Virus record (IMG/VR): IMGVR_UViG_3300022885_000007
Origin: an uncultured virus (IMG/VR IMGVR_UViG_3300022885_000007)
Lineage: Duplodnaviria; Heunggongvirae; Uroviricota; Caudoviricetes
Reading direction: 5' to 3' (one strand)
DNA length: 64,000 bases
Positions 8,115 to 42,529 of the stretch are shown one piece after another. The notes below the pieces were generated by a model, which had not been told where the DNA came from, did no database searches, and was given only the letters and a program-made list of their open reading frames with translations. Position 1 is the stretch's first letter, and every line of letters starts with the position of its first letter. Made by a program: the position numbers and the translations under genes.

Positions 8115-9221
8115 ATGATAATTAAAGAATTACTGCGCGAAGACGAGAATGTTTCTCGCCATAAACCACATCTATATTTAGATATGGATGGAGTCCAGGC
8201 TGACTTTGATAAATCATGGTGTGAGTTTGAAGGGGTTAGTGATTGCGAAGACATAGCCAACCCAGAGCAGTCAATACAGCGTTTGGCAGCCGGCGGATCT
8301 GACGCTGTATACGAGTTTTTCCGCGATCTGGAGACCCTAAGGGGAGGCCTAAGCGTTATTAAGTGGCTACAACAACATAATATCAACTATACAATACTTT
8401 CTGCACCTTTAAGGTATGATCCTGAGCCAAGTATCAAAGGCAAGCAAGAATGGCTTGATAAACACCACCCAGGAACGTCTGAGGACGCCATATACACATC
8501 TAACAAGTACAAGTATGCAACTGACAAAAATGGCAATCCCAACGTGCTAATCGACGATTACAGCAAGAATATAGTCCCATGGGACAACGCAGGGGGCATA
8601 GCAATCACGCATGATCCAGCTGATGCAGGGCCCACAATCAAAGCACTTGAGCAGATATATCTCAAAGATGAGATAGATGAAGCAAGTCCTGACACATTAG
8701 AGGGTAGTTTTACCCCTGATCTACAGTATAGTAAAGTCTGGTTACTAGATGAGGTACAGAAGATACTAAAGAAAGCCAAAGTACCAAATTTAGATACTAT
8801 CTATAACTTAGGTAGTTGGTACAGTAACATGGGATTGTTCTTAGTTGCGAACAAGTTAGGGTTTAACAAGTTAATCAACGTTGATATAGATGAGAATACA
8901 TTGACAACAGGAGCAAAACTACTAGATAAACTCGGTATATCTGATAAAGTAGAACATATGCACAAGGATGCCAATACAATAGACTACAGACAACTTAAAT
9001 CTCCTGGACTAGTTATCAATACATCGACTAATGACATTGATGGAGATGATTGGTTAAAGAATATCCCTGAGGGGACATTAGTTGCAATGCAAGGTAGACA
9101 CGGAACACTAGCAGAATTTGACAATCAATTCCCATTGAGGAAAACATACTTTTTAGATGAAGTTGAACTGGAAGATCCAGAGACTGAATATGAAAGGTTT
9201 ATGAAAATAGGTGTTAAATGA
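8115..9221 (+). CDS. Fusion of a HAD 5'(3')-deoxyribonucleotidase-like domain and a class I SAM-methyltransferase-like domain
   Basis: LDMDGV, ILSAP, LIDD; then NLGSWY..VDID..DAN..INTS. Confidence 0.7.
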   Translation: MIIKELLREDENVSRHKPHLYLDMDGVQADFDKSWCEFEGVSDCEDIANPEQSIQRLAAGGSDAVYEFFRDLETLRGGLSVIKWLQQHNINYTILSAPLRYDPEPSIKGKQEWLDKHHPGTSEDAIYTSNKYKYATDKNGNPNVLIDDYSKNIVPWDNAGGIAITHDPADAGPTIKALEQIYLKDEIDEASPDTLEGSFTPDLQYSKVWLLDEVQKILKKAKVPNLDTIYNLGSWYSNMGLFLVANKLGFNKLINVDIDENTLTTGAKLLDKLGISDKVEHMHKDANTIDYRQLKSPGLVINTSTNDIDGDDWLKNIPEGTLVAMQGRHGTLAEFDNQFPLRKTYFLDEVELEDPETEYERFMKIGVK

Positions 9222-9871
9222 TTTATTTTGAAGATGACTTCTTACCAGAAGATCAATTTTTAGCACTAAAAGCGCAAGTTGAATCTAAGTATAAGCCTAT
9301 AAAACCTAGAAAGTTATTCGCTAACTATGACTACAGACTAGAACCAGACAAATTTATTCTGCCTGTAGCACGAACAGGTAACTGGATGGATAGTTGTACA
9401 CAAGCGGTCGAATGTATCCCTGCTTTGCAAAAAATGGAAGACACACTGAAGTCATTGGGCATACAAGAATTAAAGAACTGGTCATCTTGGTTTCAATATT
9501 CAGTAGATACAATGTCTCTTCCTGTCCACAGAGATCAATCAGTAAGAAAGAGTTTACCTAAAGATACTTACACTGCTGTTATCTATACAAGTGATTGGAA
9601 GCCTAATTGGGGAGGAGAATTTGTTGTAGGCAAGCCAGTCTTTGATAGACCAGGCGGAAATGTAAAATCATTAACAAACTTTACTCACACTATCGAGCCT
9701 AAACCAAATCGTATGACTATATGGAGCAGAGAAGAATGGCATATGGTCAATGCACTAACTGTTAATGATCCTGACTATGTTAGATCATTCATGGGTACTA
9801 GCTGGAGTTCAGTAGAAAACAGTGAATATGAAAATAACCCATATCAACGTTTTTACTTTACTGAAAGATGA
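9218..9871 (+). CDS. 2OG-Fe(II) oxygenase (prolyl-4-hydroxylase-like)
   Basis: EDDFL, HRD, WKPNWGGE, PNR, WH..R. Confidence 0.85.
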   Translation: MIYFEDDFLPEDQFLALKAQVESKYKPIKPRKLFANYDYRLEPDKFILPVARTGNWMDSCTQAVECIPALQKMEDTLKSLGIQELKNWSSWFQYSVDTMSLPVHRDQSVRKSLPKDTYTAVIYTSDWKPNWGGEFVVGKPVFDRPGGNVKSLTNFTHTIEPKPNRMTIWSREEWHMVNALTVNDPDYVRSFMGTSWSSVENSEYENNPYQRFYFTER

Positions 9872-10524
9872 TATACTACCAAGATAATTTTTTACCCCAA
9901 GAACAGTTTGAAGCCTTAGCGAAAAGAGTACAAGGAAGATTTGGAACTGGAGACACACGTAGCTTAGTTGAAGATTCTGATGAGCCAGTAAGATTAACTT
10001 ATCACGACCACACTGGGAATTGGCGTGAAGGGTGTAATTTTCTAGGACATGAATGTATTCCAGCTATAGAAAAAATCATTGCGACTATGGAAGAGAACAA
10101 CATTGAAAATATAAAAAACTGGTCTGTATGGTTTCAATATATTATTGACACCATGACTTTGCCGCCACACCAAGATACAGGTTTGCGTAAAAGTGATCAA
10201 GCAAATACATACACTGCGGTTATCTATACAAGTGATTGGAAGCCGGGATGGGGCGGCGAGTTTATCGTAGGTGAACCAGTCTACAAAGAACTAGAGCCAT
10301 CACTAGCTAAATCAATGATTCATGCCAGAGCAGACTCGCTTACTAATTTAACGCATGTAATTGATCCAGTACCAAATCGGATGTTGATGTGGAGCAGAGA
10401 AGAATGGCATGCAGTAAACAAAGTTACTGTTAATGATCCGAAATACATGAGAGCGTTCTTTGGAACTGGTTGGAGTTCGATAGACGTAAATGCTATAGCC
10501 CGCAATGCAACAGAGCACGGATAA
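9868..10524 (+). CDS. 2OG-Fe(II) oxygenase, paralogue of the upstream gene
   Basis: HQD, YTAVIYTSDWKP.WGGEF, PNR, EEWH. Confidence 0.85.
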   Translation: MIYYQDNFLPQEQFEALAKRVQGRFGTGDTRSLVEDSDEPVRLTYHDHTGNWREGCNFLGHECIPAIEKIIATMEENNIENIKNWSVWFQYIIDTMTLPPHQDTGLRKSDQANTYTAVIYTSDWKPGWGGEFIVGEPVYKELEPSLAKSMIHARADSLTNLTHVIDPVPNRMLMWSREEWHAVNKVTVNDPKYMRAFFGTGWSSIDVNAIARNATEHG

Positions 10525-11134
10525 TAATATGATATTTAAAGAAGACAATTTTTTACCAATCGATGTGCTTGACAAGTTAAGTGACAAAACAGCATATCTT
10601 TATAAATTGGCTAAAGTAGAAACATCCTTTCTGAATATCACGGTACCAGTGATAGACGATGATAATGGTGTATACGAAATTACTCAAAGTAAGCAATTTT
10701 GCAAACGATTTAGATTTTTCTGTAACGGCGATGATGTAATGAAAGAAACAGTGGATTTCTTTGGAGAAGACATAGAAAAAGTGATACTGTGCACCAAGCA
10801 ATACATCATTGATCAGGGTTGGAAAGACATCAAGTTAAGTAATGTATGGTTTCAGTACGGAGATACCGAATCACTGATGCATAGACACACTGACGGACAA
10901 ATACGCGGTGTAGAATATCAAAATTGTCTTACGTCTATGATTTTCTGTCACAAAAAATGGGATGATGATTGTGGAGGTATCTTCAGAGCAGTAGATGGCG
11001 ATACTACCAAATCATTCGGGCCCACGCCTAATCGTTTAGTTGTATGGAACAGAAATCATGCTCACTGGATGACGCCTATAGTCAAGGAATGCCCACTTAG
11101 AATGTTTATCGGAATGTCTTGGTATGCAAAATAA
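10505..11134 (+). CDS. 2OG-Fe(II) oxygenase
   Basis: EDNFL, HTD, WDDDCGG, PNRLV, H..R. Confidence 0.8.
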   Translation: MQQSTDNNMIFKEDNFLPIDVLDKLSDKTAYLYKLAKVETSFLNITVPVIDDDNGVYEITQSKQFCKRFRFFCNGDDVMKETVDFFGEDIEKVILCTKQYIIDQGWKDIKLSNVWFQYGDTESLMHRHTDGQIRGVEYQNCLTSMIFCHKKWDDDCGGIFRAVDGDTTKSFGPTPNRLVVWNRNHAHWMTPIVKECPLRMFIGMSWYAK

Positions 11135-16880: not shown

Positions 16881-16957
16881 TGGTACACCCTGCAGGACTC
16901 GAACCTGCTACCCTTGGTTTAGAAAACCAATGCTCTATCCAGATGAGCTAAGAGTGC
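16881..16957 (-). tRNA. tRNA-Arg(TCT)
   Basis: Cloverleaf, anticodon loop TTTCTAA, encoded CCA. Confidence 0.93.
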
Positions 16958-16964
16958 ATTAATT

Positions 16965-17040
16965 TGGTGCGTCTTGTTGGGATCGAACCAACTACCAGCG
17001 GATTAAAAGTCCGATGCTCTTCCAGATGAGCTAAAGACGC
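16965..17040 (-). tRNA. tRNA-Lys(TTT)
   Basis: Anticodon loop CTTTTAA, CCA. Confidence 0.93.
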
Positions 17041-17048
17041 ATTGTTCT

Positions 17049-17133
17049 TGGTACGAAAGGAGAGACTCGAACTCTCACGGGTTGCCCCACTGGAACCTAA
17101 ATCCAGCGTGTCTACCAATTTCACCACTCTCGC
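17049..17133 (-). tRNA. tRNA-Leu(TAG)
   Basis: Loop TTTAGGT, long variable arm, CCA. Confidence 0.92.
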
Positions 17134-17199
17134 ATTTCAATTTATAATAGCATCATAACACAACTTCAGCGTCATGTACACTACTATTTGTTATATTTG

Positions 17200-17274
17200 A
17201 GCGTATACTCGGATTCGAACCGAGACTTAAAGGGTGGAAGCCTTTCGTGCTTAACCGTTAAACACTATACACGC
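17200..17274 (-). tRNA. tRNA-Gly(TCC), CCA not encoded (followed by CAA)
   Basis: Loop CTTCCAC, GCG acceptor, U73. Confidence 0.88.
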
Positions 17275-17289
17275 ATAATTCTTTTCTTT

Positions 17290-17868
17290 CTAACTCACTC
17301 CTTCACTAAAATCAATGGCCATCTGTTTGGCATCGTCCATTGTTTCAGCAACCCACTCACCACGACCTAATGGGTTAATACGATCAATAGGATAAAGTGT
17401 TCCGCCTATCGTGTTGCGTAGCTTTTTGTTTGGAACAGTGTCTGAGTAGTCCCACTTTATATCGTAATACCGTTTACCATCTTGTTCAACAATAATACCA
17501 TCACATCTACTATTTAGGTGGTATTCATTTGCCAAAAAGTCAATCGCGGCTTGTTCTGCCTCTTCATCTGAGCTTGCCACATAATGGCAATCGGCTTTAG
17601 TACATGTTGACCCAACTTTAAAACCATAAATTGTTCGATGACTCCAACCATACCATTTTTTATCTAGAGGACTATATCCTACGCCATGTGTTAGTTCTTC
17701 AGTTATTTCACGTTCAGCTAGGTGTTTTACATCATCTTCCATGCCGACATGGGTGATATAACTACCATCAAAAATACTTTCGTACACGTTAGTGGGTGGC
17801 TCACTTTTTGGGCCAATCTGTATCATTGTTTTATATGCTACCTTATCTAACCATTCGGTAGTGTTCAT
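17290..17868 (-). CDS. Hypothetical protein inside the tRNA array
   Basis: 192-aa ORF with a GGAG SD; KWYGWSHR motif. Confidence 0.75.
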   Translation of the reverse strand: MNTTEWLDKVAYKTMIQIGPKSEPPTNVYESIFDGSYITHVGMEDDVKHLAEREITEELTHGVGYSPLDKKWYGWSHRTIYGFKVGSTCTKADCHYVASSDEEAEQAAIDFLANEYHLNSRCDGIIVEQDGKRYYDIKWDYSDTVPNKKLRNTIGGTLYPIDRINPLGRGEWVAETMDDAKQMAIDFSEGVS

Positions 17869-17894
17869 ACGTCTTTCTCCATTATATAATTGTT

Positions 17895-17968
17895 TGGCAT
17901 ATCAGTGAGGAATCGAACCCCAGTCTAGGGGTTTGGAATCCCTCGTTCTGCCACTGAACTACTGACAT
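17895..17968 (-). tRNA. tRNA-Trp(CCA)
   Basis: Loop TTCCAAA, CCA. Confidence 0.9.
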
Positions 17969-17976
17969 ATTAACAT

Positions 17977-18052
17977 TGGGGTGAGCAAAGGGATTCGAAC
18001 CCTCGTTTTACAGGTTCACAACCTGCGGCTTTACCACTAAGCTACACTCACC
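17977..18052 (-). tRNA. tRNA-His(GTG)
   Basis: Loop TTGTGAA, G-1:C73, CCA. Confidence 0.92.
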
Positions 18053-18059
18053 ATTAATC

Positions 18060-18136
18060 TGGTCCGTTTATCAGGATTCGAACCTGAAGTCTGACGCTTC
18101 GTAGACGCCTGCTCTATCCAGTTGAGCTATAAACGG
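18060..18136 (-). tRNA. tRNA-Arg(ACG)
   Basis: Loop CTACGAA, CCA. Confidence 0.92.
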
Positions 18137-18143
18137 TCTAAAT

Positions 18144-18217
18144 TGGCCTGTTTATCAGGGATCAAACCTGCTCAATCTTTGCGCTGAGATTGATGTTCTT
18201 CACTGAACAATAAACAG
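18144..18217 (-). ncRNA. Non-canonical tRNA-like RNA (7-bp anticodon stem, 8-nt loop CAGCGCAA, no variable loop)
   Basis: Perfect acceptor CTGTTTA/TAAACAG plus GCCA; D stem GTTC/GAAC; TCAATCT/AGATTGA; T arm CAGG-TTTGATC-CCTG. Confidence 0.75.
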
Positions 18218-18224
18218 TCTAAAT

Positions 18225-18301
<77 letters not shown>

Positions 18302-18307
18302 AATAAT

Positions 18308-18384
18308 TGGTCTAGGAGGTAGGATTTGAACCTACGACCTCTTCGTTCCAAACAAAGCACGCTACCAGACTGCGTTACTCCTAG
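18308..18384 (-). tRNA. tRNA-Pro(TGG), second divergent copy
   Basis: Loop TTTGGAA, CCA. Confidence 0.88.
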
Positions 18385-18389
18385 ATAAT

Positions 18390-18557
18390 TTGTTATGATG
18401 AAAGATGTGGTTGTCGAATTCACAATCTTCACGGAAGTGTTCCAACTTCTACGATGTCTTACCTATTAGACGACCTTTCAATCAATGTTGGTGCAAACAA
18501 ACGAGTACTCATCGATCTACACCACATGATCAGAACGCGCATCCTGATCAAAGTCTT
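18390..18557 (-). ncRNA. Structured ncRNA family, copy A (with tRNA-like domain)
   Basis: AAGACTT-hairpin-GG..CC-AACAT-TGATTGAAAG..CTTTCATCA-TAACAA; internal D arm GTCT/AGAC and TTCGA loop. Confidence 0.7.
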
Positions 18558-18561
18558 AAAT

Positions 18562-18675
18562 TTGTTATGATGAAAGAGCATGCGTCCATACCTTTTCATC
18601 AATGTCGGTGCAAGTTAAAGGCTAGTAAAACTTTTCACCCCCCGTTTAAAGCGTTTATTCCTTAAACTAAGTCTT
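18562..18675 (-). ncRNA. Structured ncRNA family, copy B (no tRNA-like domain)
   Basis: Same termini and linker; 5' AAGACTT begins 7 nt after a -10 box. Confidence 0.7.
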
Positions 18676-18681
18676 AGTCTT

Positions 18682-18710
18682 ATTGTAATATAATGATTAC
18701 CCAAAGTCAA
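18682..18710 (-). promoter_or_regulatory. sigma70-type promoter inside the RNA array
   Basis: TTGACT-N17-TACAAT. Confidence 0.8.
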
Positions 18711-18737
18711 CCTTTTTCTCGGTTGAATTTCATTAAA

Positions 18738-18880
18738 TTGTTATGACTGAAAGGGTGTGGTATCGAACCACACTTCTTTCCGCTCCGGCGCGTCTTACCC
18801 ATAGACGACCTTTCAATCAATGTCGGATACAATCATGTATTGTACCGCTCGTTTAAAGTGCGCACTTTAAACAAAGTCTT
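18738..18880 (-). ncRNA. Structured ncRNA family, copy C (with tRNA-like domain)
   Basis: Same scaffold; TGAAAGG/CCTTTCA, GTCT-ATGGGTA-AGAC and GTGTGG-TTCGATA-CCACAC. Confidence 0.72.
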
Positions 18881-18956
18881 AAATTAGTGAGGGTCTCTCC
18901 CCTCGGTCACGATTTCACTCGTCGGGTCGGCGCCGTCTTCAACCGCGCATTAAAGT

Positions 18957-19031
18957 TGGCAGAGATGGGTGGGATCGAACCACCTCCTAGAGGGTTCAAA
19001 ACCCCCCGCCTTCCCACTTGGCTACATCTCA
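18957..19031 (-). tRNA. tRNA-Gln(TTG)
   Basis: Loop TTTTGAA, CCA. Confidence 0.9.
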
Positions 19032-19037
19032 ACTAAC

Positions 19038-19112
19038 TGGCTGGTAAGGTAGGGATCGAACCTACGACCTGGTGATTAACAGTCACCTGCACTGCCGCTG
19101 TGCTACTTACCA
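19038..19112 (-). tRNA. tRNA-Asn(GTT)
   Basis: Loop CTGTTAA, CCA. Confidence 0.93.
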
Positions 19113-19121
19113 TTTGTAAAT

Positions 19122-19197
19122 TGGCGGTCTGGACGAGGATCGAACTCGCTGATTCTCCGCAGACAACGGAGCGCATTACCACTATTGCTACCAAACC
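19122..19197 (-). tRNA. tRNA-Asp(GTC)
   Basis: Loop TTGTCTG, CCA. Confidence 0.9.
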
Positions 19198-19233
19198 TTA
19201 TTATATCTATATATCACTTTCTTACTTACAAAT

Positions 19234-19311
19234 TGGTTGCGGAGAGTTGGATTCGAACCAACGACCCTCGGATTATGAGTCCGACGCTCTGACCGACTGA
19301 GCTATCCCGCA
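19234..19311 (-). tRNA. tRNA-Met(CAT) with an initiator-like acceptor
   Basis: Loop CTCATAA; GCGGG..CCGCAACCA. Confidence 0.88.
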
Positions 19312-19315
19312 TCAA

Positions 19316-19390
19316 TGGGGGAGTAGCGAGGAGTCGAACCTCTTTAACCGTGCGGGCAACTTGTTGCATTACCGCCAATAGGACTACTCC
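19316..19390 (-). ncRNA. tRNA-like RNA with an intact acceptor and T arm but no canonical D or anticodon arm
   Basis: GGAGTAG/CTACTCC plus CCCA; GAGG-TTCGACT-CCTC. Confidence 0.65.
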
Positions 19391-19396
19391 ATAATC

Positions 19397-19472
19397 TGGT
19401 GGAGATATAAGGACTCGAACCTTAAACCGTCTCGTTGCAAACGAGATGCACTACCAATTGTGCTATATCCCC
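19397..19472 (-). tRNA. tRNA-Ala(TGC)
   Basis: Loop TTTGCAA, G3:U70, CCA. Confidence 0.93.
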
Positions 19473-19480
19473 TAAAATCT

Positions 19481-19562
19481 TGGTGGAGGCGATAGGTGTC
19501 GAACCTACACACTACTAACAATGATCAACTGTTAGCACACACTTCCATCGTGCGAAACCCCC
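19481..19562 (-). ncRNA. Non-canonical tRNA-like RNA with an Ala-type acceptor (G3:U70, A73), a 9-bp anticodon stem and loop TTGATCA
   Basis: GGGGGTT..CGCCTCC-A-CCA; GCAC/GTGT; TGCTAACAG/TTGTTAGTA; GTAGG-TTCGACA-CCTAT. Confidence 0.78.
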
Positions 19563-19570
19563 TTTGTTCT

Positions 19571-19646
19571 TGGTGGATAGTACAGGCATCGAACCTGTGA
19601 CCTATGCCTTGTAAGGGCACCGCTCTGCCGTCTGAGCTAACCATCC
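19571..19646 (-). tRNA. tRNA-Val(TAC)
   Basis: Loop CTTACAA, CCA. Confidence 0.92.
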
Positions 19647-19654
19647 TATAATTA

Positions 19655-19790
19655 ATAATATCCTCTAATACCGGCCTGCATAAACACCGAACACCAGAGG
19701 ATATTAAGTACCTCTTACAATAATAGATTGACACGTATCAACTATTATTCTCTATCATCAGATAAGGTCTTTAGAGAATTTATTATCTAA
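19655..19790 (-). ncRNA. Candidate three-hairpin ncRNA or leader
   Basis: TTCTCTA/TAGAGAA, TAATAG/CTATTA and TAATATCCTCT/AGAGGATATTA stems directly after a promoter. Confidence 0.4.
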
Positions 19791-19798
19791 TATTACCT

Positions 19799-19827
19799 AT
19801 GATATCAGAAAGATAATCCTATGTCAA
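19799..19827 (-). promoter_or_regulatory. sigma70-type promoter inside the RNA array
   Basis: TTGACA-N17-TATCAT. Confidence 0.75.
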
Positions 19828-19844
19828 CCTTTATCGCAATTTAA

Positions 19845-20102
19845 TAATCCTCTAATGGTTTCCACGTTCGAGACACTTTCACCATTAGAGGATGTCAGAC
19901 ATACAGGCAGTGATCAATCCTGCCTGGCTACACCATGTCAACTCATAGATGTCTATTACACGACCTAGAACTTACACTTTCAGTCTTCGATGCAGACTTT
20001 CCTCATACCGACCGTAGTTCGCTTTCGCAGGCTCGATCTTAAACCCTTGTTAAGACCCATGATGATCGTGGAGTCCCTCTAATATCCCTTGCAATGGATA
20101 TC
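19845..20102 (-). ncRNA. Candidate ~260-nt structured ncRNA
   Basis: Multiple hairpins, including CAGGCAG-GATTGATCA-CTGCCTG and a 12-bp terminal stem ATCCTCTAATGG/CCATTAGAGGAT; no ORF. Confidence 0.55.
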
Positions 20103-20106
20103 AAAC

Positions 20107-20183
20107 TGGTAGTTCTGGTAGGGATTGAACCTACGACCTTCCCATTATGAGTGGGATGCTCTGACCAACTGAGCTACAGAACA
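20107..20183 (-). tRNA. tRNA with CAT anticodon (Met or lysidine-type Ile2)
   Basis: Loop CTCATAA, CCA. Confidence 0.88.
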
Positions 20184-20195
20184 ATTAAATCTTTT

Positions 20196-20251
20196 AATCA
20201 GATAGAGCCGTTACCGACAAACACCTCAGCTTAATCTGATTCCACCGAGGC
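20196..20251 (-). ncRNA. Candidate pseudoknotted small RNA
   Basis: GCCTCGG/CTGAGGT crossed with AATCAGAT/ATCTGATT; GTCG-GTAA-CGGC hairpin. Confidence 0.45.
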
Positions 20252-20260
20252 TATATTAAT

Positions 20261-20335
20261 TGGTAGTTCCGACAGGACTTGAACCTATGTCTGTCGATTA
20301 TCAGTCGAATGCTCTACCAACTGAGCTACGGAACT
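20261..20335 (-). tRNA. tRNA-Ile(GAT)
   Basis: Loop CTGATAA, CCA. Confidence 0.92.
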
Positions 20336-20345
20336 ATTAAATAAT

Positions 20346-20448
20346 AAAGACCCCCAAGTTTGCGGATAGTAAACCATAGCCTCTGGGGGTACAACAGACA
20401 GTGATCAACTCTGTCTGGCTACACTGGGCGAGCCTTTGTGTAGTCTTT
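20346..20448 (-). ncRNA. Candidate ~100-nt three-hairpin ncRNA
   Basis: CTACAC/GTGTAG, CAGACAG-AGTTGATCA-CTGTCTG and ACCCCCAG/TTGGGGGT. Confidence 0.6.
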
Positions 20449-20450
20449 TT

Positions 20451-20541
20451 TGGAGGAGAAAGAGGGATTCGAACCCTCGATACGCTATTAACATATAAAC
20501 CCTTAGCAGGGGTTCGCCTTCAACCACTCAGCCATTTCTCC
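20451..20541 (-). tRNA. tRNA-Ser(GCT)
   Basis: Loop CTGCTAA, long variable arm, CCA. Confidence 0.92.
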
Positions 20542-20548
20542 TAATAAA

Positions 20549-20632
20549 TGGAAGAGGGAGAGGGATTCGAACCCTCGAAGCTTTCGCGGTGGATTTGCAA
20601 TCCACCTCCTTTGACCGCTCAGAAACCCCTCT
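20549..20632 (-). tRNA. tRNA-Cys(GCA) with a Tyr-type variable arm
   Basis: Loop TTGCAAA, U73, variable arm CGCGAAAGCTT. Confidence 0.85.
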
Positions 20633-20638
20633 AGCATT

Positions 20639-20727
20639 TGGCGGAAGATGAAGGATTCGAACCCTCGAAGCTTTTTACACTCTCCTGTTTTCAAAACAGG
20701 CGCATTCGGCCGCTCTGCCAATCTTCC
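20639..20727 (-). tRNA. tRNA-Ser(TGA)
   Basis: Loop TTTGAAA, long variable arm, CCA. Confidence 0.92.
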
Positions 20728-20928
20728 TGAAGCTTTATTTATCCCAACGAATTTATTTGTATTAATTGGGTTGTCCCTATTCAGAGTGTCACAACTCCAT
20801 TCTTGTCATCGAAGGGAACACAACGACTAACCTAATTTCAAGAGGTTCGCAGTAAACGTCTGGGCCTTAACTCCCCCGACTGTCGTTGATTTGCTACGCT
20901 GGCTCAACTGACCTAAGCCATTTCAATA

Positions 20929-21003
20929 TGGTACCCTGTAAGAGACTTGAACTCTTATTGCTGGGTTGAAAACCAAGTGTCCTAACCTTTGGACGAACAG
21001 GGC
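20929..21003 (-). tRNA. tRNA-Glu(TTC)
   Basis: Loop TTTTCAA, CCA. Confidence 0.9.
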
Positions 21004-21079
21004 AATAAATGGTCGCCTATTATCAAACCGGACGATACGGTCACCTCTTTCTACTGAATAGTAGGTGAGCATCTTACAT

Positions 21080-21165
21080 TGGTGAAGAGAGTTGGATTCG
21101 AACCAACGAAGCTTTCGCGTCAGATTTACAGTCTGATCCTTTTAACCGGACTCAGGCACCTCTCC
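21080..21165 (-). tRNA. tRNA-Tyr(GTA)
   Basis: Loop CTGTAAA, variable arm, CCA. Confidence 0.92.
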
Positions 21166-21171
21166 ATTGTT

Positions 21172-21247
21172 TGGTACCGAAACTTGGAATCGAACCAAGG
21201 ACACGGAGGTCTTCAACCTCCTGCTCTACCAACTGAGCTATCTCGGT
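21172..21247 (-). tRNA. tRNA-Phe(GAA)
   Basis: Loop TTGAAGA, CCA. Confidence 0.92.
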
Positions 21248-21254
21248 GTTAATT

Positions 21255-21330
21255 TGGAGCCCAAGATAGGATTTGAACCTACGACATCCTGATTACAAAT
21301 CAGGCGCTCTGCCAACTGAGCTACTCGGGC
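21255..21330 (-). tRNA. tRNA-Thr(TGT)
   Basis: Loop TTTGTAA, CCA. Confidence 0.93.
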
Positions 21331-21708: not shown

Positions 21709-22111
21709 ACATGATTCTCCTAAAATTTAACTACATTTATCGTGTAATTCTCATTACACACTTACCATAATATCGGGCATAAATGAGTTTGTCAATTCAC
21801 TTATTACCCAATATCACAATTCCTTTCTACACTCGCTTTGGTTATTATTGATCTGCTAAGTGTTTTTCCATTACAAGATTTTGCTTGAGTCTATCAGCAA
21901 GTGTAATTTGACCAGTGAAACAGCATGCTAAGAAATCAAACTGATCGAAAAAAGTTACCGAATGATCTTCGCCGCTATCCATAAAAGCATCAGCTTCAGC
22001 AAAGTTCCAGTTAATAGAACCATTAGTTTCAATGTTCTCTGGATTAGTAACTGCCTTGTTAAATGCTCTTGCTACTGTGTCTGAAATAATCATGTAAGTT
22101 CTGCCTTTTTG

Positions 22112-22872
22112 CGTTAATATACTATATTATAATGAAATGTTTACCCAAAGTCAACCTTTTTCTTTCTAATCTGCTCTGGATGACATATACGCTTTAACGC
22201 CATGAGCCGTTAGTACATTAGCATAAGCTCTTGCACCTACTTCTTTCACGTCCATACTCTGAGTAGGGCTACCACCTGGGTTCCATAACATCAAAGACCT
22301 ATCATATGATTTCCTAAAGCCAACTGCCTGTAAGGCTTTGCCCAATTTTGAATTGGATCTAACCTTGTAGACTGATACCCAAGCAAACCCACAATACATT
22401 GGTTCACCGTACATAGCCCTATAATCAGCTTCTGCTTGTTTTGCTTGCTCAATGCCAATAAGATGGATGGTTTCTATCTGATCTATCTTAGATTGATCAA
22501 CCGTTTGATTAGTCATTACGCTTTTCCTTTATAGCCAAGTTGTCTCATAGCCGCAACAGGATTCAGATTTGCTGACAGCTCCATGTATTCTTCAACATTA
22601 CAGTTCTTAACAAGAAAGTTAATCCAAGTCTTGTATGGTTTGTAACCATATTTGAATCGAGCGACGAATGCAGGTTTGAGTAAACCGTGCCATGATGGGT
22701 GACAATCAGGAGAAACATCCTGCATCAACCTTGAACCATTAAAGTCGCCTTTGTACATTAAGTACATACCGTCCCAACTAAACATTTCTTTATCAAACTT
22801 AGTCATAACTTTCTCTCTCTTTTCGTTAATATACTATATTATAATGAAATGTTTACCCAAAGTCAACCTTTT
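22112..22872 (-). repeat. Two identical ~50-bp promoter cassettes (22112-22161 and 22824-22873)
   Basis: AAAAGGTTGACTTTGGGTAAACATTTCATTATAATATAGTATATTAACG, i.e. TTGACT-N17-TATAAT. Confidence 0.9.
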
Positions 22873-23394
22873 TTACCCTCCTAATCTAACGTAAGTTGAA
22901 GTCATGTGCATACACTCAAGTAAACTTTTGGTCTCTGTTCTAAACAACTCAGCAAACTTCGGATCGTGTTCTGCGATACTTCCACTGTTGTGGTGTAGAT
23001 CACAGGTCTTTACCACTTTAACAATCCAAGGTGCTCGTGACAATCTTGCTTCACACAATCCCTTACGAACCTCTCTGTTACCTACAAAGCTCTCGGTCTT
23101 GGTCAAGTACCAAACACCAGACGCAATCTCCTTACCAAACAACTCTACTATTTCGTCATGAGTCGCATCGGTATCTTCTACAGTATCGTGCAACACCGCG
23201 ACACACTTAGCAAACTCGACCGTATCTATATCGGCTGTTCGGCCGAATACATGTACATCTTCACACAAAAACTTCTCAACTTTCTCGGCAACTGCCAACG
23301 GATGGGTAATGTAGGGTTCATGGGTGTACTTTCGAACCTGACCTTCGTGCTTCTCAGTGGCATATCGAACTGCCTTTTCGTATAACTCACTCAT
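22873..23394 (-). CDS. HD-domain hydrolase, SpoT/Mesh1 (small alarmone hydrolase)-like
   Basis: H.GQ.RK..PYITHP, LHDTVEDT and K..D..HN motifs. Confidence 0.85.
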   Translation of the reverse strand: MSELYEKAVRYATEKHEGQVRKYTHEPYITHPLAVAEKVEKFLCEDVHVFGRTADIDTVEFAKCVAVLHDTVEDTDATHDEIVELFGKEIASGVWYLTKTESFVGNREVRKGLCEARLSRAPWIVKVVKTCDLHHNSGSIAEHDPKFAELFRTETKSLLECMHMTSTYVRLGG

Positions 23395-24896: not shown

Positions 24897-25553
24897 TCAT
24901 ACCGTCCACTTCCCTTTGTCGTGATCGAACGTTTGTTTATAGTAGGTGCGTGAAGCATGATGATACACACAGATACCTTCAGGTTTATTGAACTTTTCAA
25001 CCATACTACCATCGCGCATGAGCATTTCCATAGCAACATCTGGATCACCACCGCATAACTCAGTAAGGTCTGGAACAACATGACAACACTTAGGTGTATT
25101 AGGATTGTGAACACCCCATCGTAGCACGTTGAACAATGCAAAGCGTTTCTCTGTTAGTCCATATCCTCGTTGAATCCCCAAACCCATCCACTCACCGAAG
25201 TGGCGACCTTCACCCATCTTGAATAACTCTTCTGAGTTGTCATACACCCATCGAGCAAACCCAAAGTTGTCAGTTCCTTTTACTGCGACTCCATCACTAT
25301 CATTAATATGACCGTTCGTAGCAATCCAACGCTTGCGACTTCCCGCATACATAACGAGTGCGGGATCAGATTCTGTGTCACCATACAGTACATCGATACA
25401 GTACGGATCTTGGTTACATTCATCATGCGCTTCGTGATTAGACATTTCAAATATTGATACTTGTGCATTCGTCCCATCTAGTTTCTCGGTGATCGTTTGA
25501 TCACTCTTTAGTCGTGCAATTTTCCCGAAGGATTCAAATTCAAACTGACTCAT
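24897..25553 (-). CDS. RNA ligase (ATP-dependent nucleotidyltransferase family)
   Basis: TEKLDGTN motif I, GSRKR, FGEW.G.GIQ and PEG..K. Confidence 0.8.
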   Translation of the reverse strand: MSQFEFESFGKIARLKSDQTITEKLDGTNAQVSIFEMSNHEAHDECNQDPYCIDVLYGDTESDPALVMYAGSRKRWIATNGHINDSDGVAVKGTDNFGFARWVYDNSEELFKMGEGRHFGEWMGLGIQRGYGLTEKRFALFNVLRWGVHNPNTPKCCHVVPDLTELCGGDPDVAMEMLMRDGSMVEKFNKPEGICVYHHASRTYYKQTFDHDKGKWTV

Positions 25554-25790
25554 TAGATTTCTCCTCTATACAATTCGCTAGCCTTCACGGGCGTCGCATA
25601 AACCCATTCACCATCGTGGTCAGTATAGGGCTTATCTACTTGGGGCATCTTCTCGGTGATCATCCGTGCCTCATCGCGTGGGTTATTTTCAGGCCCGTAA
25701 TCCCAGACCCAACACAGTATAGCTTCAGTATCCAATCGCTCCTCCCACTTATTCATCTTCATTCTCCTAATTTTTAAGTGCAGTTCCTTA

Positions 25791-26981
25791 CTATCCTTTG
25801 ATACAAAGAACTTGCTTTATTTCGTGGACTATCTCCACAAGGTCGCTTTGCGCTTTCATTACATCATCGATAGGCTTATATGCACTTGGTGTTTCGTCGA
25901 TAATATCTTCATCAATTCGACATTCAACTCCCTTTACGTCCTCTTCATGTTGCTGTAGTGTCACTAGTTTTTTTGCTTGAGTTCTGGACATCACTCTTCC
26001 TGCCCCGTGACTGCAACTATTGAAGGATTCTGGATTTCCAAGACCTTTCACTATGAAGGATCTCTGACCCATACTACTAGGGATTATCCCATACTGTCCA
26101 CGTCTTGCAGATACAGCACCTTTACGAGTTACCCACACATTTTCGTTGTAGTGATGTTCTTTTTGCACGTAATTGTGGTGGCAGTCAACTGTCAACTCAT
26201 CGATACTGAACTCTTTCGTGTGCTTTCGTAACACCTTGAGTGTGTTCTCCATCATTAGTGCGCGGTTCATCTTAGCGAACTCTTGTGCCCAGTTAACAGA
26301 TTCTATGTACTGATCAAAGTAAGCAGAGCCTTCTGGTAGGTAAGCTAGGTCAGCATCAGGTAGAGAGACAAAGTACTTTTCCATTTCTTTTTTTGCTTTC
26401 TCGATGAAGTATCTTCCTATAGCATTTCCAACTCCTCGACTACCAGAGTGTAGCATCACCCATACTGAATCATCAGCTTTCTCAATACAAACCTCTATGA
26501 AGTGATTACCACCCCCTAGCGTTCCAAGGTGAGCTATGTTGTTTGTGTTCTCAACAGGACAAAAATCAAGTATCCATTTAAATCCAGGCTCTAGTTTGTT
26601 ATTCCACAAATCTGTCACAGCTTTAGGTAGCTGTTGTATGTCATGCTTACCTTGCCCTACTGGGACAACCGATTCGATATCAAGACGCAATGCTTTGAGA
26701 TTGTCTGGTAGGTCTGCCGCATTTAAAGATGTTTTTACTGCTTGCATACCACAACCCAGATCAACTCCTACGGCAGACGGTATGATAGCTTTCTTTGTTG
26801 CTAATACAGTTCCAATAGCACAACCTTTACCTAAGTGTGCGTCAGGCATTGAGGCTACCCATTTGTGGATGAAGGGCATATCTGCTAAGTTAAGCAGTTG
26901 CTCTTTTACGTTATCATCGAATTGAACTCCATCAGACCACGCTTTGACTATATTTCTTTTACCTTTTAATACTTCCATCAC
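25791..26981 (-). CDS. rtcB: RtcB RNA-splicing/repair ligase
   Basis: MPDAH, GVDLGCG, GGGNHF, HSGSRG, HHN, RKGA, HGAGR and DETPSAYK motifs. Confidence 0.95.
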   Translation of the reverse strand: MMEVLKGKRNIVKAWSDGVQFDDNVKEQLLNLADMPFIHKWVASMPDAHLGKGCAIGTVLATKKAIIPSAVGVDLGCGMQAVKTSLNAADLPDNLKALRLDIESVVPVGQGKHDIQQLPKAVTDLWNNKLEPGFKWILDFCPVENTNNIAHLGTLGGGNHFIEVCIEKADDSVWVMLHSGSRGVGNAIGRYFIEKAKKEMEKYFVSLPDADLAYLPEGSAYFDQYIESVNWAQEFAKMNRALMMENTLKVLRKHTKEFSIDELTVDCHHNYVQKEHHYNENVWVTRKGAVSARRGQYGIIPSSMGQRSFIVKGLGNPESFNSCSHGAGRVMSRTQAKKLVTLQQHEEDVKGVECRIDEDIIDETPSAYKPIDDVMKAQSDLVEIVHEIKQVLCIKG

Positions 26982-41650: not shown

Positions 41651-42040
41651 ATGAAAAATATACAAAAAGGTTTTACATTAGTTGAATTAGTAATTGCCGT
41701 TGCTTTAGTTGGGGTGCTATCTGTTGTAGCAATTCCCAAGATAACAGGCGTATCTGATGATGCACGTGTGGCCGCTTTGAAAGGGGTTGCAGGAGCATTA
41801 TCATCTGCCAGTGTTCGTAACTATGCAATACGTGGTGCAAACAATGCTAATGGTTATGAAGTTACTCAGTGTGAAGATGTAGTAGATATACTTGAAGGTG
41901 GGGTGTTGCCTCAGGGATTTGAACTTGCAGGAACAGATGGAGTCGATCCAGTGGCTGCTGAAGCAAAGGTTGAATGTACATTAAGTACTACAACTACCCC
42001 AGTACAAACCACAACATATACTGCTTACGGTATCGCCTAG
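41651..42040 (+). CDS. Type IV pilin (MshA-like)
   Basis: Class III signal QKG^FTLVELVI with E5, a hydrophobic helix, P22 and a C-terminal Cys pair. Confidence 0.88.
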   Translation: MKNIQKGFTLVELVIAVALVGVLSVVAIPKITGVSDDARVAALKGVAGALSSASVRNYAIRGANNANGYEVTQCEDVVDILEGGVLPQGFELAGTDGVDPVAAEAKVECTLSTTTTPVQTTTYTAYGIA

Positions 42041-42130
42041 ATTTAATATTCGAATCGGGCTAGAAACACTAAATAGATATGATGATCCTTATTTAAGGAT
42101 CCAAACATAACTTACATAATGGAGTAACAA

Positions 42131-42529
42131 ATGAAAAATATTAAACGATCTAAGAAAGGTTTTACATTAATTGAATTAGTAGTATCAGTTGCAGTAGTTG
42201 GTGTGTTGGCAGTTGTTGCCGCACCAAAGGTTGCAGGAGTTGCAGGCGATGCTCGGACTGCGGGAATCGATGGTATGGCTGCTTCATTGGCAACTGCATC
42301 AAGCATGAACTACAACGAACGAAAGAAGTTATCAACAAACGGTAATGCGGTAATTACTTGTACCGATACTCCTGCTTCACTAGCTGGTGGAACTCTGCCA
42401 GGCGCTTATGTATTCACATTGGATGACGGAGATGTTGAAATTCTGCCAGGCGAGACAGGACTTTGTAGAATCAGTACCCTTAGCACACCAGTTGCTACTG
42501 CTGAATATTTAGCATACGGCATAGAGTAA
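42131..42529 (+). CDS. Type IV pilin (MshA-like), paralogue
   Basis: KKG^FTLIELVV, P22, Cys pair and a shared AYGI C-terminus. Confidence 0.88.
   Translation: MKNIKRSKKGFTLIELVVSVAVVGVLAVVAAPKVAGVAGDARTAGIDGMAASLATASSMNYNERKKLSTNGNAVITCTDTPASLAGGTLPGAYVFTLDDGDVEILPGETGLCRISTLSTPVATAEYLAYGIE

Follow-up and report, generated by a model that had tools for sequence, protein, structure and literature searches.

Three paralogous structured RNAs with a tRNA-Gln-like acceptor end in the tRNA cluster of an uncultured phage

Introduction

Unexplained stable RNAs in the tRNA clusters of phages T4 and T5 have been known for decades. They include rnaC and rnaD of T4 (AF158101) and RNA1, RNAI, RNAIII, RNA2, RNA2H, RNAIV, and RNA3 of T5 (AY543070), which are structured RNAs of 100 to 170 nt located amid tRNA genes, some of them tRNA-like, and are annotated as being of unknown function (PMC9697503). 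GOLLD and ROOL are likewise phage RNAs found near tRNA islands, with the GOLLD linker sometimes holding a tRNA (bioRxiv 10.1101/2024.12.08.627333). Among bacteria, the Y RNAs YrlA and Yrn1 combine a tRNA-like domain with a second module; YrlA has its arms in the order T-acceptor-D, contains the motif GNCGAAN0-1G, and is encoded at most 4 kb from Ro60 in nearly every case (PMC4201824). Phage tRNAs are further described as countering tRNA-cleaving defences (PMC11555353), and the tRNA elbow and acceptor end as being read by many enzymes (PMC4810234).

Here, we describe three related predicted RNAs encoded in the tRNA cluster of IMG/VR record IMGVR_UViG_3300022885_000007, within a stretch of 64,000 nucleotides (the window) that is part of a large uncultured phage. 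They are real, structured, uncatalogued RNAs, known from this one phage.

Genomic setting and architecture of the three copies

We scanned 58 window proteins, comprising nearly all open reading frames of at least 120 aa plus four shorter ones, and obtained PHROG and Pfam matches that include DNA ligase, dCMP deaminase, ClpP, ClpX, Hsp20, superoxide dismutase, RtcB, RNA ligase, and Tad6. The RNA ligase gene adjoins that of RtcB (24897-26981, minus strand), a possible tRNA repair pair, and the two lie 6 to 8 kb from the copies. The gene of the Tad6 (Thoeris inhibitor) family (17290-17868, minus strand; 124 bits) sits inside the tRNA cluster. Three tandem 2OG-Fe(II) oxygenases (9218-11134, plus strand) and two tandem pilin-like genes (41651-42529, plus strand), whose neighbours are encoded on the other strand, were also observed. 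Salt-lake metagenomes are the sequencing runs that hold the window best, with at least half of its words present in 13 of the 24 listed rows.

The cluster spans 16881-21330 on the minus strand, with 25 tRNAs called by ARAGORN. All three copies lie between tRNA-Gln(UUG), which ends upstream at 18957, and tRNA-Pro, which starts at 18384, all on the minus strand. Copy A (18880-18738, 143 nt) follows the working tRNA-Gln by 76 nt, copy B (18675-18562, 114 nt) comes next, and copy C (18557-18390, 168 nt) is followed after 6 nt by the start of tRNA-Pro. These ends and lengths agree with those given in an earlier note drawn up from the sequence. Assembled contigs from runs X8, X12, and X14 match the stretch letter for letter, over its whole length or over parts of it; a single X8 contig spans 18128-19000. 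Coverage of the stretch in X16 is minimal. Since the X8 contig has no differing letter and the X12 and X14 pieces agree, the locus is not an assembly artefact. No strain variants of the copies were seen in the contigs aligned to the stretch from the sequencing runs.

The three copies share one layout: an unpaired 5' heptamer, hairpin 1, hairpin 2 a few bases on, an ACAU linker, helix 3, and an unpaired 3' UAACAA. In copy A, hairpin 1 (18875-18848) and hairpin 2 (18847-18824) are followed by the linker (18823-18820), an 11-bp helix 3 that opens into a tRNA-like domain, and the 3' tail (18743-18738). Most of its pairs have probabilities between 0.8 and 1.0, the exceptions being the initial pair of hairpin 1 and the pairs of the middle arm, which score lower. 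Copy B consists of hairpin 1 (18667-18644), hairpin 2 (18639-18607), and a helix 3 (18601-18568) of 15 positions closed by a 4-nt loop, and has neither a D arm nor a T arm. Copy C has hairpin 1 at 18550-18527, a long, G.U-rich hairpin 2 at 18526-18486, and helix 3 from 18484, beyond which lie a D arm (18471-18456), a middle hairpin (18449-18434), and a broken T arm (18424-18406). The combined pattern of the 5' heptamer, CCRACAU-UGA(U)UGAAA, and UUUCA(G)UCAUAACAA occurs three times in the window against none in 100 dinucleotide shuffles, which bears out the shared scaffold that had been proposed; the heptamer alone is at chance (15 in the window against a shuffle mean of 12.3).

Fold statistics differ among the copies. 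Copy A is more stable than its shuffles on both strands, nearly symmetrically (z -4.5 to -4.8, reverse strand -4.0), and copy B on its own strand (z about -4.1 to -4.2, reverse strand -0.5). The whole of copy C folds weakly (z -1.7), its 5' domain reaching -4.5 against -0.7 on the reverse strand and its 3' domain, at +0.35, doing no better than shuffles. Many G.U pairs are present in copies B and C. Together with the strand asymmetry of copy B and the copy C 5' domain, they indicate RNAs and not DNA palindromes, and argue for selection on the RNA. None of four tested open reading frames overlapping the copies matched a Pfam family over its cut-off, and the longest complement to the copies elsewhere in the window is 12 to 13 nt, a figure from an antisense check that has no shuffle baseline.

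A sigma-70-type promoter (TTGACT, 17 nt, TACAAT; 18682-18710, minus strand; 10 of 12 matches) lies where it had been reported, and the first base of copy B is its predicted +1, 7 nt after the -10 box. Taken alone this is weak, as a promoter scan gave 11 sites against 9.6 expected. The upstream element of this promoter (family D8) also recurs before two genes, at 22099-22161 and 22811-22873, which lends the promoter weight. A window scan found no minus-strand terminator-like site between copy B and the downstream tRNAs.

Other structured elements surround the copies. Directly 5' of copy A lies a separate three-hairpin RNA motif, element D (18881-18950, minus strand), which falls outside the family; its cores are GUGAAAUC and GGGAGAGACC, and its first and third stems visibly compensate. 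The element D core turned up in Rhizobium phage B1VFA and at 17 IMG/VR loci from a variety of phages, so that this element is far commoner than the three-copy set, and no Rfam family covered it in the 12 loci scanned. On the same strand, 18220-18143 is a CCA-ended tRNA-like gene similar to the tRNA-Arg beside it; its anticodon stem has 7 bp with a loop of 8 nt, and it lacks a variable loop. A CCA-ended tRNA-like sequence with a T arm lies at 19390-19316, and neither of the two is called by ARAGORN or Rfam. Structured non-tRNA stretches of the cluster (20105-19870, 20450-20345, 20925-20735, and 19795-19645, minus strand) gave no credible Rfam match, and the first two of these share a hairpin (nhmmer E 0.02-0.08).

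Compensation in hairpin 1 and an invariant junction

The earlier note had stated that the stems differ among the copies yet still pair. This is so for hairpin 1. Copies A and C align there without gaps, and although 10 of 18 stem positions differ, all nine pairs are kept, an outcome reached in 37 of 200,000 trials with 10 randomly placed substitutions. In the three-row alignment, four of the nine pairs have changed on both sides and two on one side, a level of compensation reached in 13 of 500 pair shuffles. This covariation comes from three related sequences, for which, as the tool warns, kinship alone can give such a signal without structure. In copy A, hairpin 1 is a perfect palindrome. Countable compensation is confined to hairpin 1: hairpin 2 differs in length among the copies and aligns only at its GG/CC base, and in helix 3 the outer 8 bp are invariant, with no covariation at all, as are both tails.

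The invariant bases thus gather where three helices and both tails meet, which suggests that this junction is the working surface of the RNAs. Conservation centres on the junction where the acceptor end is sealed, while the elbow, absent from copy B and damaged in copy C, is dispensable.

A tRNA-like domain related to tRNA-Gln

In copy A, fold and position inspection delimit a tRNA-like domain at 18744-18815 (minus strand). Its 7-bp acceptor stem (U1-A72, G2-C71, A3-U70) is extended by 4 bp in helix 3. U8 comes next, then a D arm of 4 bp (GUCU/AGAC) that includes A14, G18, and G19 (18806-18792), a middle arm of 3 bp with a 4-nt loop (18790-18781), and a T arm with a 6-bp stem and a UUCGAUA loop (18773-18755). 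G73 is followed by UCA in place of CCA, paired to the 5' leader. The pairs between the leader and positions 73-76 are predicted with probabilities of 0.8 to 1.0 in copies A and B and 0.57 to 0.71 in copy C. If the T stem has 6 bp, position 15:48 is U.A in copy A and A.U in copy C by inspection.

An elbow of D arm and T loop had been described for both A and C, and it is intact in A. In copy C, by contrast, A.C and A.A occupy the two T-stem pair positions that border the UUCGA loop, no T-arm pair has a probability above 0.35, and the cloverleaf lies 1.9 kcal/mol above the best fold. The absence of a canonical anticodon arm and of CCA holds throughout: no copy has a 5-bp anticodon stem with a 7-nt loop, the middle hairpin of copy C having 5 bp and a 6-nt loop and copy B having none. 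Copy B was said to replace the domain by a short hairpin, which is accurate as regards the missing D and T arms, but it keeps the acceptor start, with a helix of 12 positions running from the equivalent of U1-A72 to the tetraloop.

We compared the first 25 nt of the domain (its 5' half) with the 108 tRNAs called in the collected loci. For copy A, tRNA-Gln sequences took ranks 1, 2, and 3, with three others at 10, 13, and 100; for copy C they took ranks 1 and 2, with others at 8, 12, 14, and 94. A set of 85 tRNAs gave the same top ranks. Glutamine identity elements include U1-A72, G2-C71, G3-C70, G10, and G73 (PMC9976931). Copy A carries U1-A72, G2-C71, G10, and G73, as well as G18, G19, and C56, and has A-U instead of the listed G-C at 3-70; copy C has neither G73 nor the G53-C61 pair. 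Judging from these sequence likenesses, the tRNA-like part appears to descend from tRNA-Gln. On the predicted fold, the RNAs should be neither chargeable nor decoding, since the (G)UCA in the CCA position is base-paired to the leader and the anticodon arm has been reshaped.

Search for relatives

No homologue outside this phage was recovered by pattern scans of viral, metagenome, and genome sequences, by covariance model, or by BLAST. The middle motif alone matched at least 116 viral loci, and among those listed its partner strand was present downstream in one, which was not scaffold-like. Both helix-3 strands together matched 15 viral loci, none of which showed the fold or a nearby tRNA. The 5' heptamer with the junction pattern matched 38 viral and two genome loci, with a top model score of 13.6 bits, and the T loop with the 3' end matched 41 viral loci in nine distinct contexts, the best reaching 17 bits; copies A, B, and C themselves score 103 to 167 bits. 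Seven viral loci, all of the Ackermannviridae type, matched the T-arm pattern, and the metagenome scan returned two loci, both 100% identical to the window. Diverged homologues can escape such scans, because the patterns demand exact conserved letters.

Building a covariance model from the three copies had been put forward as a way to find homologues; the resulting model, R2, matched none of 32 records, among which a single complete relative by protein was present (G004). Another model, R1, matched two of 19 records, both ordinary tRNAs, and gave a weak match to the tRNA-like sequence at 19390-19316. BLAST against phages returned T-arm, D-arm, or chance pieces only, and against plasmids nothing. 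Two window proteins matched no cultured phage and one neighbour protein had no viral relative. With one complete relative in the set and no cultured phage matching the two window proteins, the lineage appears thinly sampled.

Rfam gave no match at the gathering threshold over the window, nor any over 18380-18960 when E values up to 10 were admitted, so that no described family accounts for the copies; on narrower stretches, only chance-level matches were seen (three in one scan, two in another). We found no description of such an RNA in literature listings, and two motifs of the copies gave no hit in six supplementary files of PMC10690425. The suggestion of an undescribed RNA class therefore stands in so far as no Rfam family matches, but a class is not established: with no outside homologue found, the family consists of three paralogues.

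Possible origin and function

Probably, the copies are structured RNAs under selection. In the explanation that we favour, the three paralogous small-RNA genes would trace to local duplication of a single chimera, in which a 5' module of two hairpins is fused to a tRNA-Gln-descended domain. Copy B would be transcribed from its own promoter, and A and C would be cut from the tRNA-cluster transcript at the AU-rich spacers, yielding discrete RNAs with a common 5' end. The invariant junction would most likely bind a protein, and the distal parts would represent variable cargo, namely, a full elbow (A), a damaged elbow (C), and a plain 12-bp minihelix (B). The RNAs may serve as decoys or scaffolds for a host protein that handles or attacks tRNAs, for example, a tRNA-targeting defence nuclease or toxin. 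We favour this role, to which we would give somewhat less than an even chance, because phage tRNAs blunt tRNA-cleaving defences and enzymes read the elbow and acceptor end; RtcB, RNA ligase, and Tad6 in the window were also counted towards it. Counted against the favoured explanation as a whole were the lack of an outside homologue, covariation drawn from three related sequences, helix 3 without covariation, the 3' domain of copy C at chance, the palindromic hairpin 1 and strand symmetry of copy A, and A-U in place of G-C at 3-70.

Part of this evidence would also suit decaying duplicates of a tRNA-Gln pseudogene and its leader, in which palindrome-forming mutation produced the hairpins and no function was selected. 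Such decay would accommodate the missing homologues, the broken T arm of C, the loss of the D and T arms from B, the location of copy A just past a working tRNA-Gln, and its palindromic hairpin 1. It does not sit well with a hairpin 1 that pairs entirely in register despite 10 substitutions, with the G.U pairs and strand asymmetry, with junction and tails that stay invariant beside diverging stems, or with copy B starting exactly at the promoter +1, and we hold it to be doubtful. A role as RNase P precursors, in which a cut at U1 releases a two-hairpin RNA and either a tRNA-like RNA (A and C) or a minihelix (B), perhaps then gaining CCA, is unlikely. Copy A does offer an exact 7-bp acceptor stem from U1, with U8, A14, G18, G19, and a T loop, and copy B 12 helix positions from U1 to the loop; moreover, the YrlA of Mycobacterium smegmatis, whose acceptor stem is 7 bp long, is an RNase P substrate and acquires CCA (PMC4201824). 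However, positions 73-76 are predicted to be base-paired to the leader in A, B, and C alike, through invariant pairs, which disfavours a precursor; the acceptor and T helices are 7/6 instead of 7/5, the T stem of C is disrupted, and a T loop is missing from B.

The start of copy B at a promoter +1 and the absence of a minus-strand terminator-like site before the downstream tRNAs could also be read as signs of leader or processing structures acting in cis to stabilise or mature the transcript of the downstream tRNA-Pro, Arg, His, and Trp. We consider this quite improbable, given that copy A lies upstream of the promoter and that three copies, a shared 3' tail, and tRNA-like cargo exceed what a leader needs. 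It is very unlikely that the copies are a new self-cleaving or otherwise catalytic RNA with the conserved three-helix junction as its core: invariant unpaired bases do gather at one junction and RtcB and RNA ligase are encoded 6 to 8 kb off, but no Rfam ribozyme matched even at E up to 10 and inspection revealed no pseudoknot partner. Least of all do we expect the copies to have diverged from a decoy family already described, either the Y RNAs, which likewise carry a tRNA-like domain, or RNA anti-CRISPRs, here as mimics of a repeat with AUUGAAAG at its end. Rfam CRISPR-DR6 aligned weakly to hairpin 2 and the 5' strand of helix 3 in copy A (13.4 bits, E 3.4, cut-off 39), but this score is at chance, and the octamer AUUGAAAG is paired inside helix 3, is not the same in copy B, and is accounted for by the acceptor stem of tRNA-Gln; neither a YrlA motif nor a TROVE gene was found nearby.

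Returning to decoys or scaffolds, a rather doubtful extension would be a modular phage RNA class, in which the junction binds a specific host protein and interchangeable cargoes adjust the choice of tRNA-targeting defence or processing enzyme to be titrated. The three RNAs could also assemble together through the self-complementary 5' heptamer and the GCGC loops that inspection reveals in the copies. If the copies do titrate tRNA-targeting defence enzymes, RNA-based counter-defence would extend beyond the supply of spare tRNAs and the mimicry of CRISPR RNAs to uncleavable, unchargeable tRNA decoys. Three paralogues with one fixed junction and three cargoes constitute a natural structure-function series, and their small size suits transcription, probing, and pull-down.

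Comparison with known RNAs

Like YrlA and Yrn1, the copies combine a tRNA-like domain with a second module. They are not Y RNAs, as the earlier note had argued: no Y RNA match came from Rfam, whether at the gathering threshold or with E values up to 10, the Rsr-binding motif GNCGAAN0-1G occurs in none of the three, and the arms follow the ordinary D, middle, T order instead of that of YrlA. The proposed search for a Ro60/TROVE partner gene came back empty among the 58 window proteins and in both records scanned (G001 and G004). GOLLD and ROOL share with the copies their position near tRNA islands in phages and were rejected as being several times longer, with no Rfam match in the window; as a positive control, the same tool detected GOLLD in locus L190. 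A tmRNA, including permuted and tRNA-like-domain (TLD)-only forms, was rejected for want of an ARAGORN or Rfam call and because 3-70 is A-U and not G3.U70; the tmRNA model gave a 7-bit match to the T arm only (E 1.9), and the TLD-only phage tmRNAs of PMC11915505 and PMC4131195 do not fit the copies. The 8/4 and 9/3 tRNAs have other frames (PMC5389517). RNA anti-CRISPRs (Racrs) were set aside with the 13.4-bit repeat match as the best, the repeats compared being those of Rfam, and the copies matched neither the Racrs described in PMC10651486 nor the viral sgRNAs described in bioRxiv 10.64898/2026.06.01.729453. Known self-cleaving ribozymes were rejected likewise, with no Rfam match.

The strongest lead from BLAST is an unannotated tRNA-like gene of Ackermannviridae (FJ373894, LR811968, and MN478483), which like the copies has a 7/6 acceptor-T helix and a stunted middle arm, and which contains a T-arm stretch of 26 to 29 nt near-identical to that of copy A. 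It differs in standing alone, with a changing upstream context, a 5' half that is tRNA-Leu-like and not Gln-like, and no shared scaffold, and we therefore regard it as an analogue and not as a family member. The gene (L003 2461-2533, L001 2500-2576, and L161 708-782) is conserved and mostly unannotated; BLAST matched the region around it in 251 records, 163 of them covering at least 80% of the query. In some members it is replaced by a CDS or by another tRNA-like RNA, and a weak permuted-tmRNA match follows it.

With phage tRNA-Gln (e.g., L174 1512-1585 and 1864-1938), the tRNA-like domain has in common U1-A72, G2-C71, A3-U70, UC at positions 8-9, the GUCU/AGAC D stem, and G73. The copies depart from it in having no 7-nt anticodon loop, a 6-bp T stem, a leader-paired UCA for CCA, and two extra 5' hairpins, and neither ARAGORN nor Rfam calls them as tRNAs.

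Finally, like the T4 and T5 small RNAs, the copies are structured RNAs of comparable length amid tRNA genes, and T5 also encodes three small RNAs in a row (144, 107, and 106 nt). Comparison by nhmmer of copies A, B, and C gave no match to T5 and one match of B to T4, at E 1.7 and outside rnaC and rnaD; the best score of model R2 on T5 was 10.2 bits (E 0.73), and the whole T4 record gave none. In the seven T5 small RNAs the two ends are paired, whereas the copies have about 60 to 70 nt 5' of the acceptor helix, and, unlike the T4 and T5 RNAs, they are paralogues. On sequence and predicted fold, the copies resemble the stable RNAs of the T4 and T5 tRNA clusters in kind, without homology; the novelty lies in three paralogues, differing in cargo, in each of which a module of two hairpins is attached to a sealed tRNA-Gln-like end.
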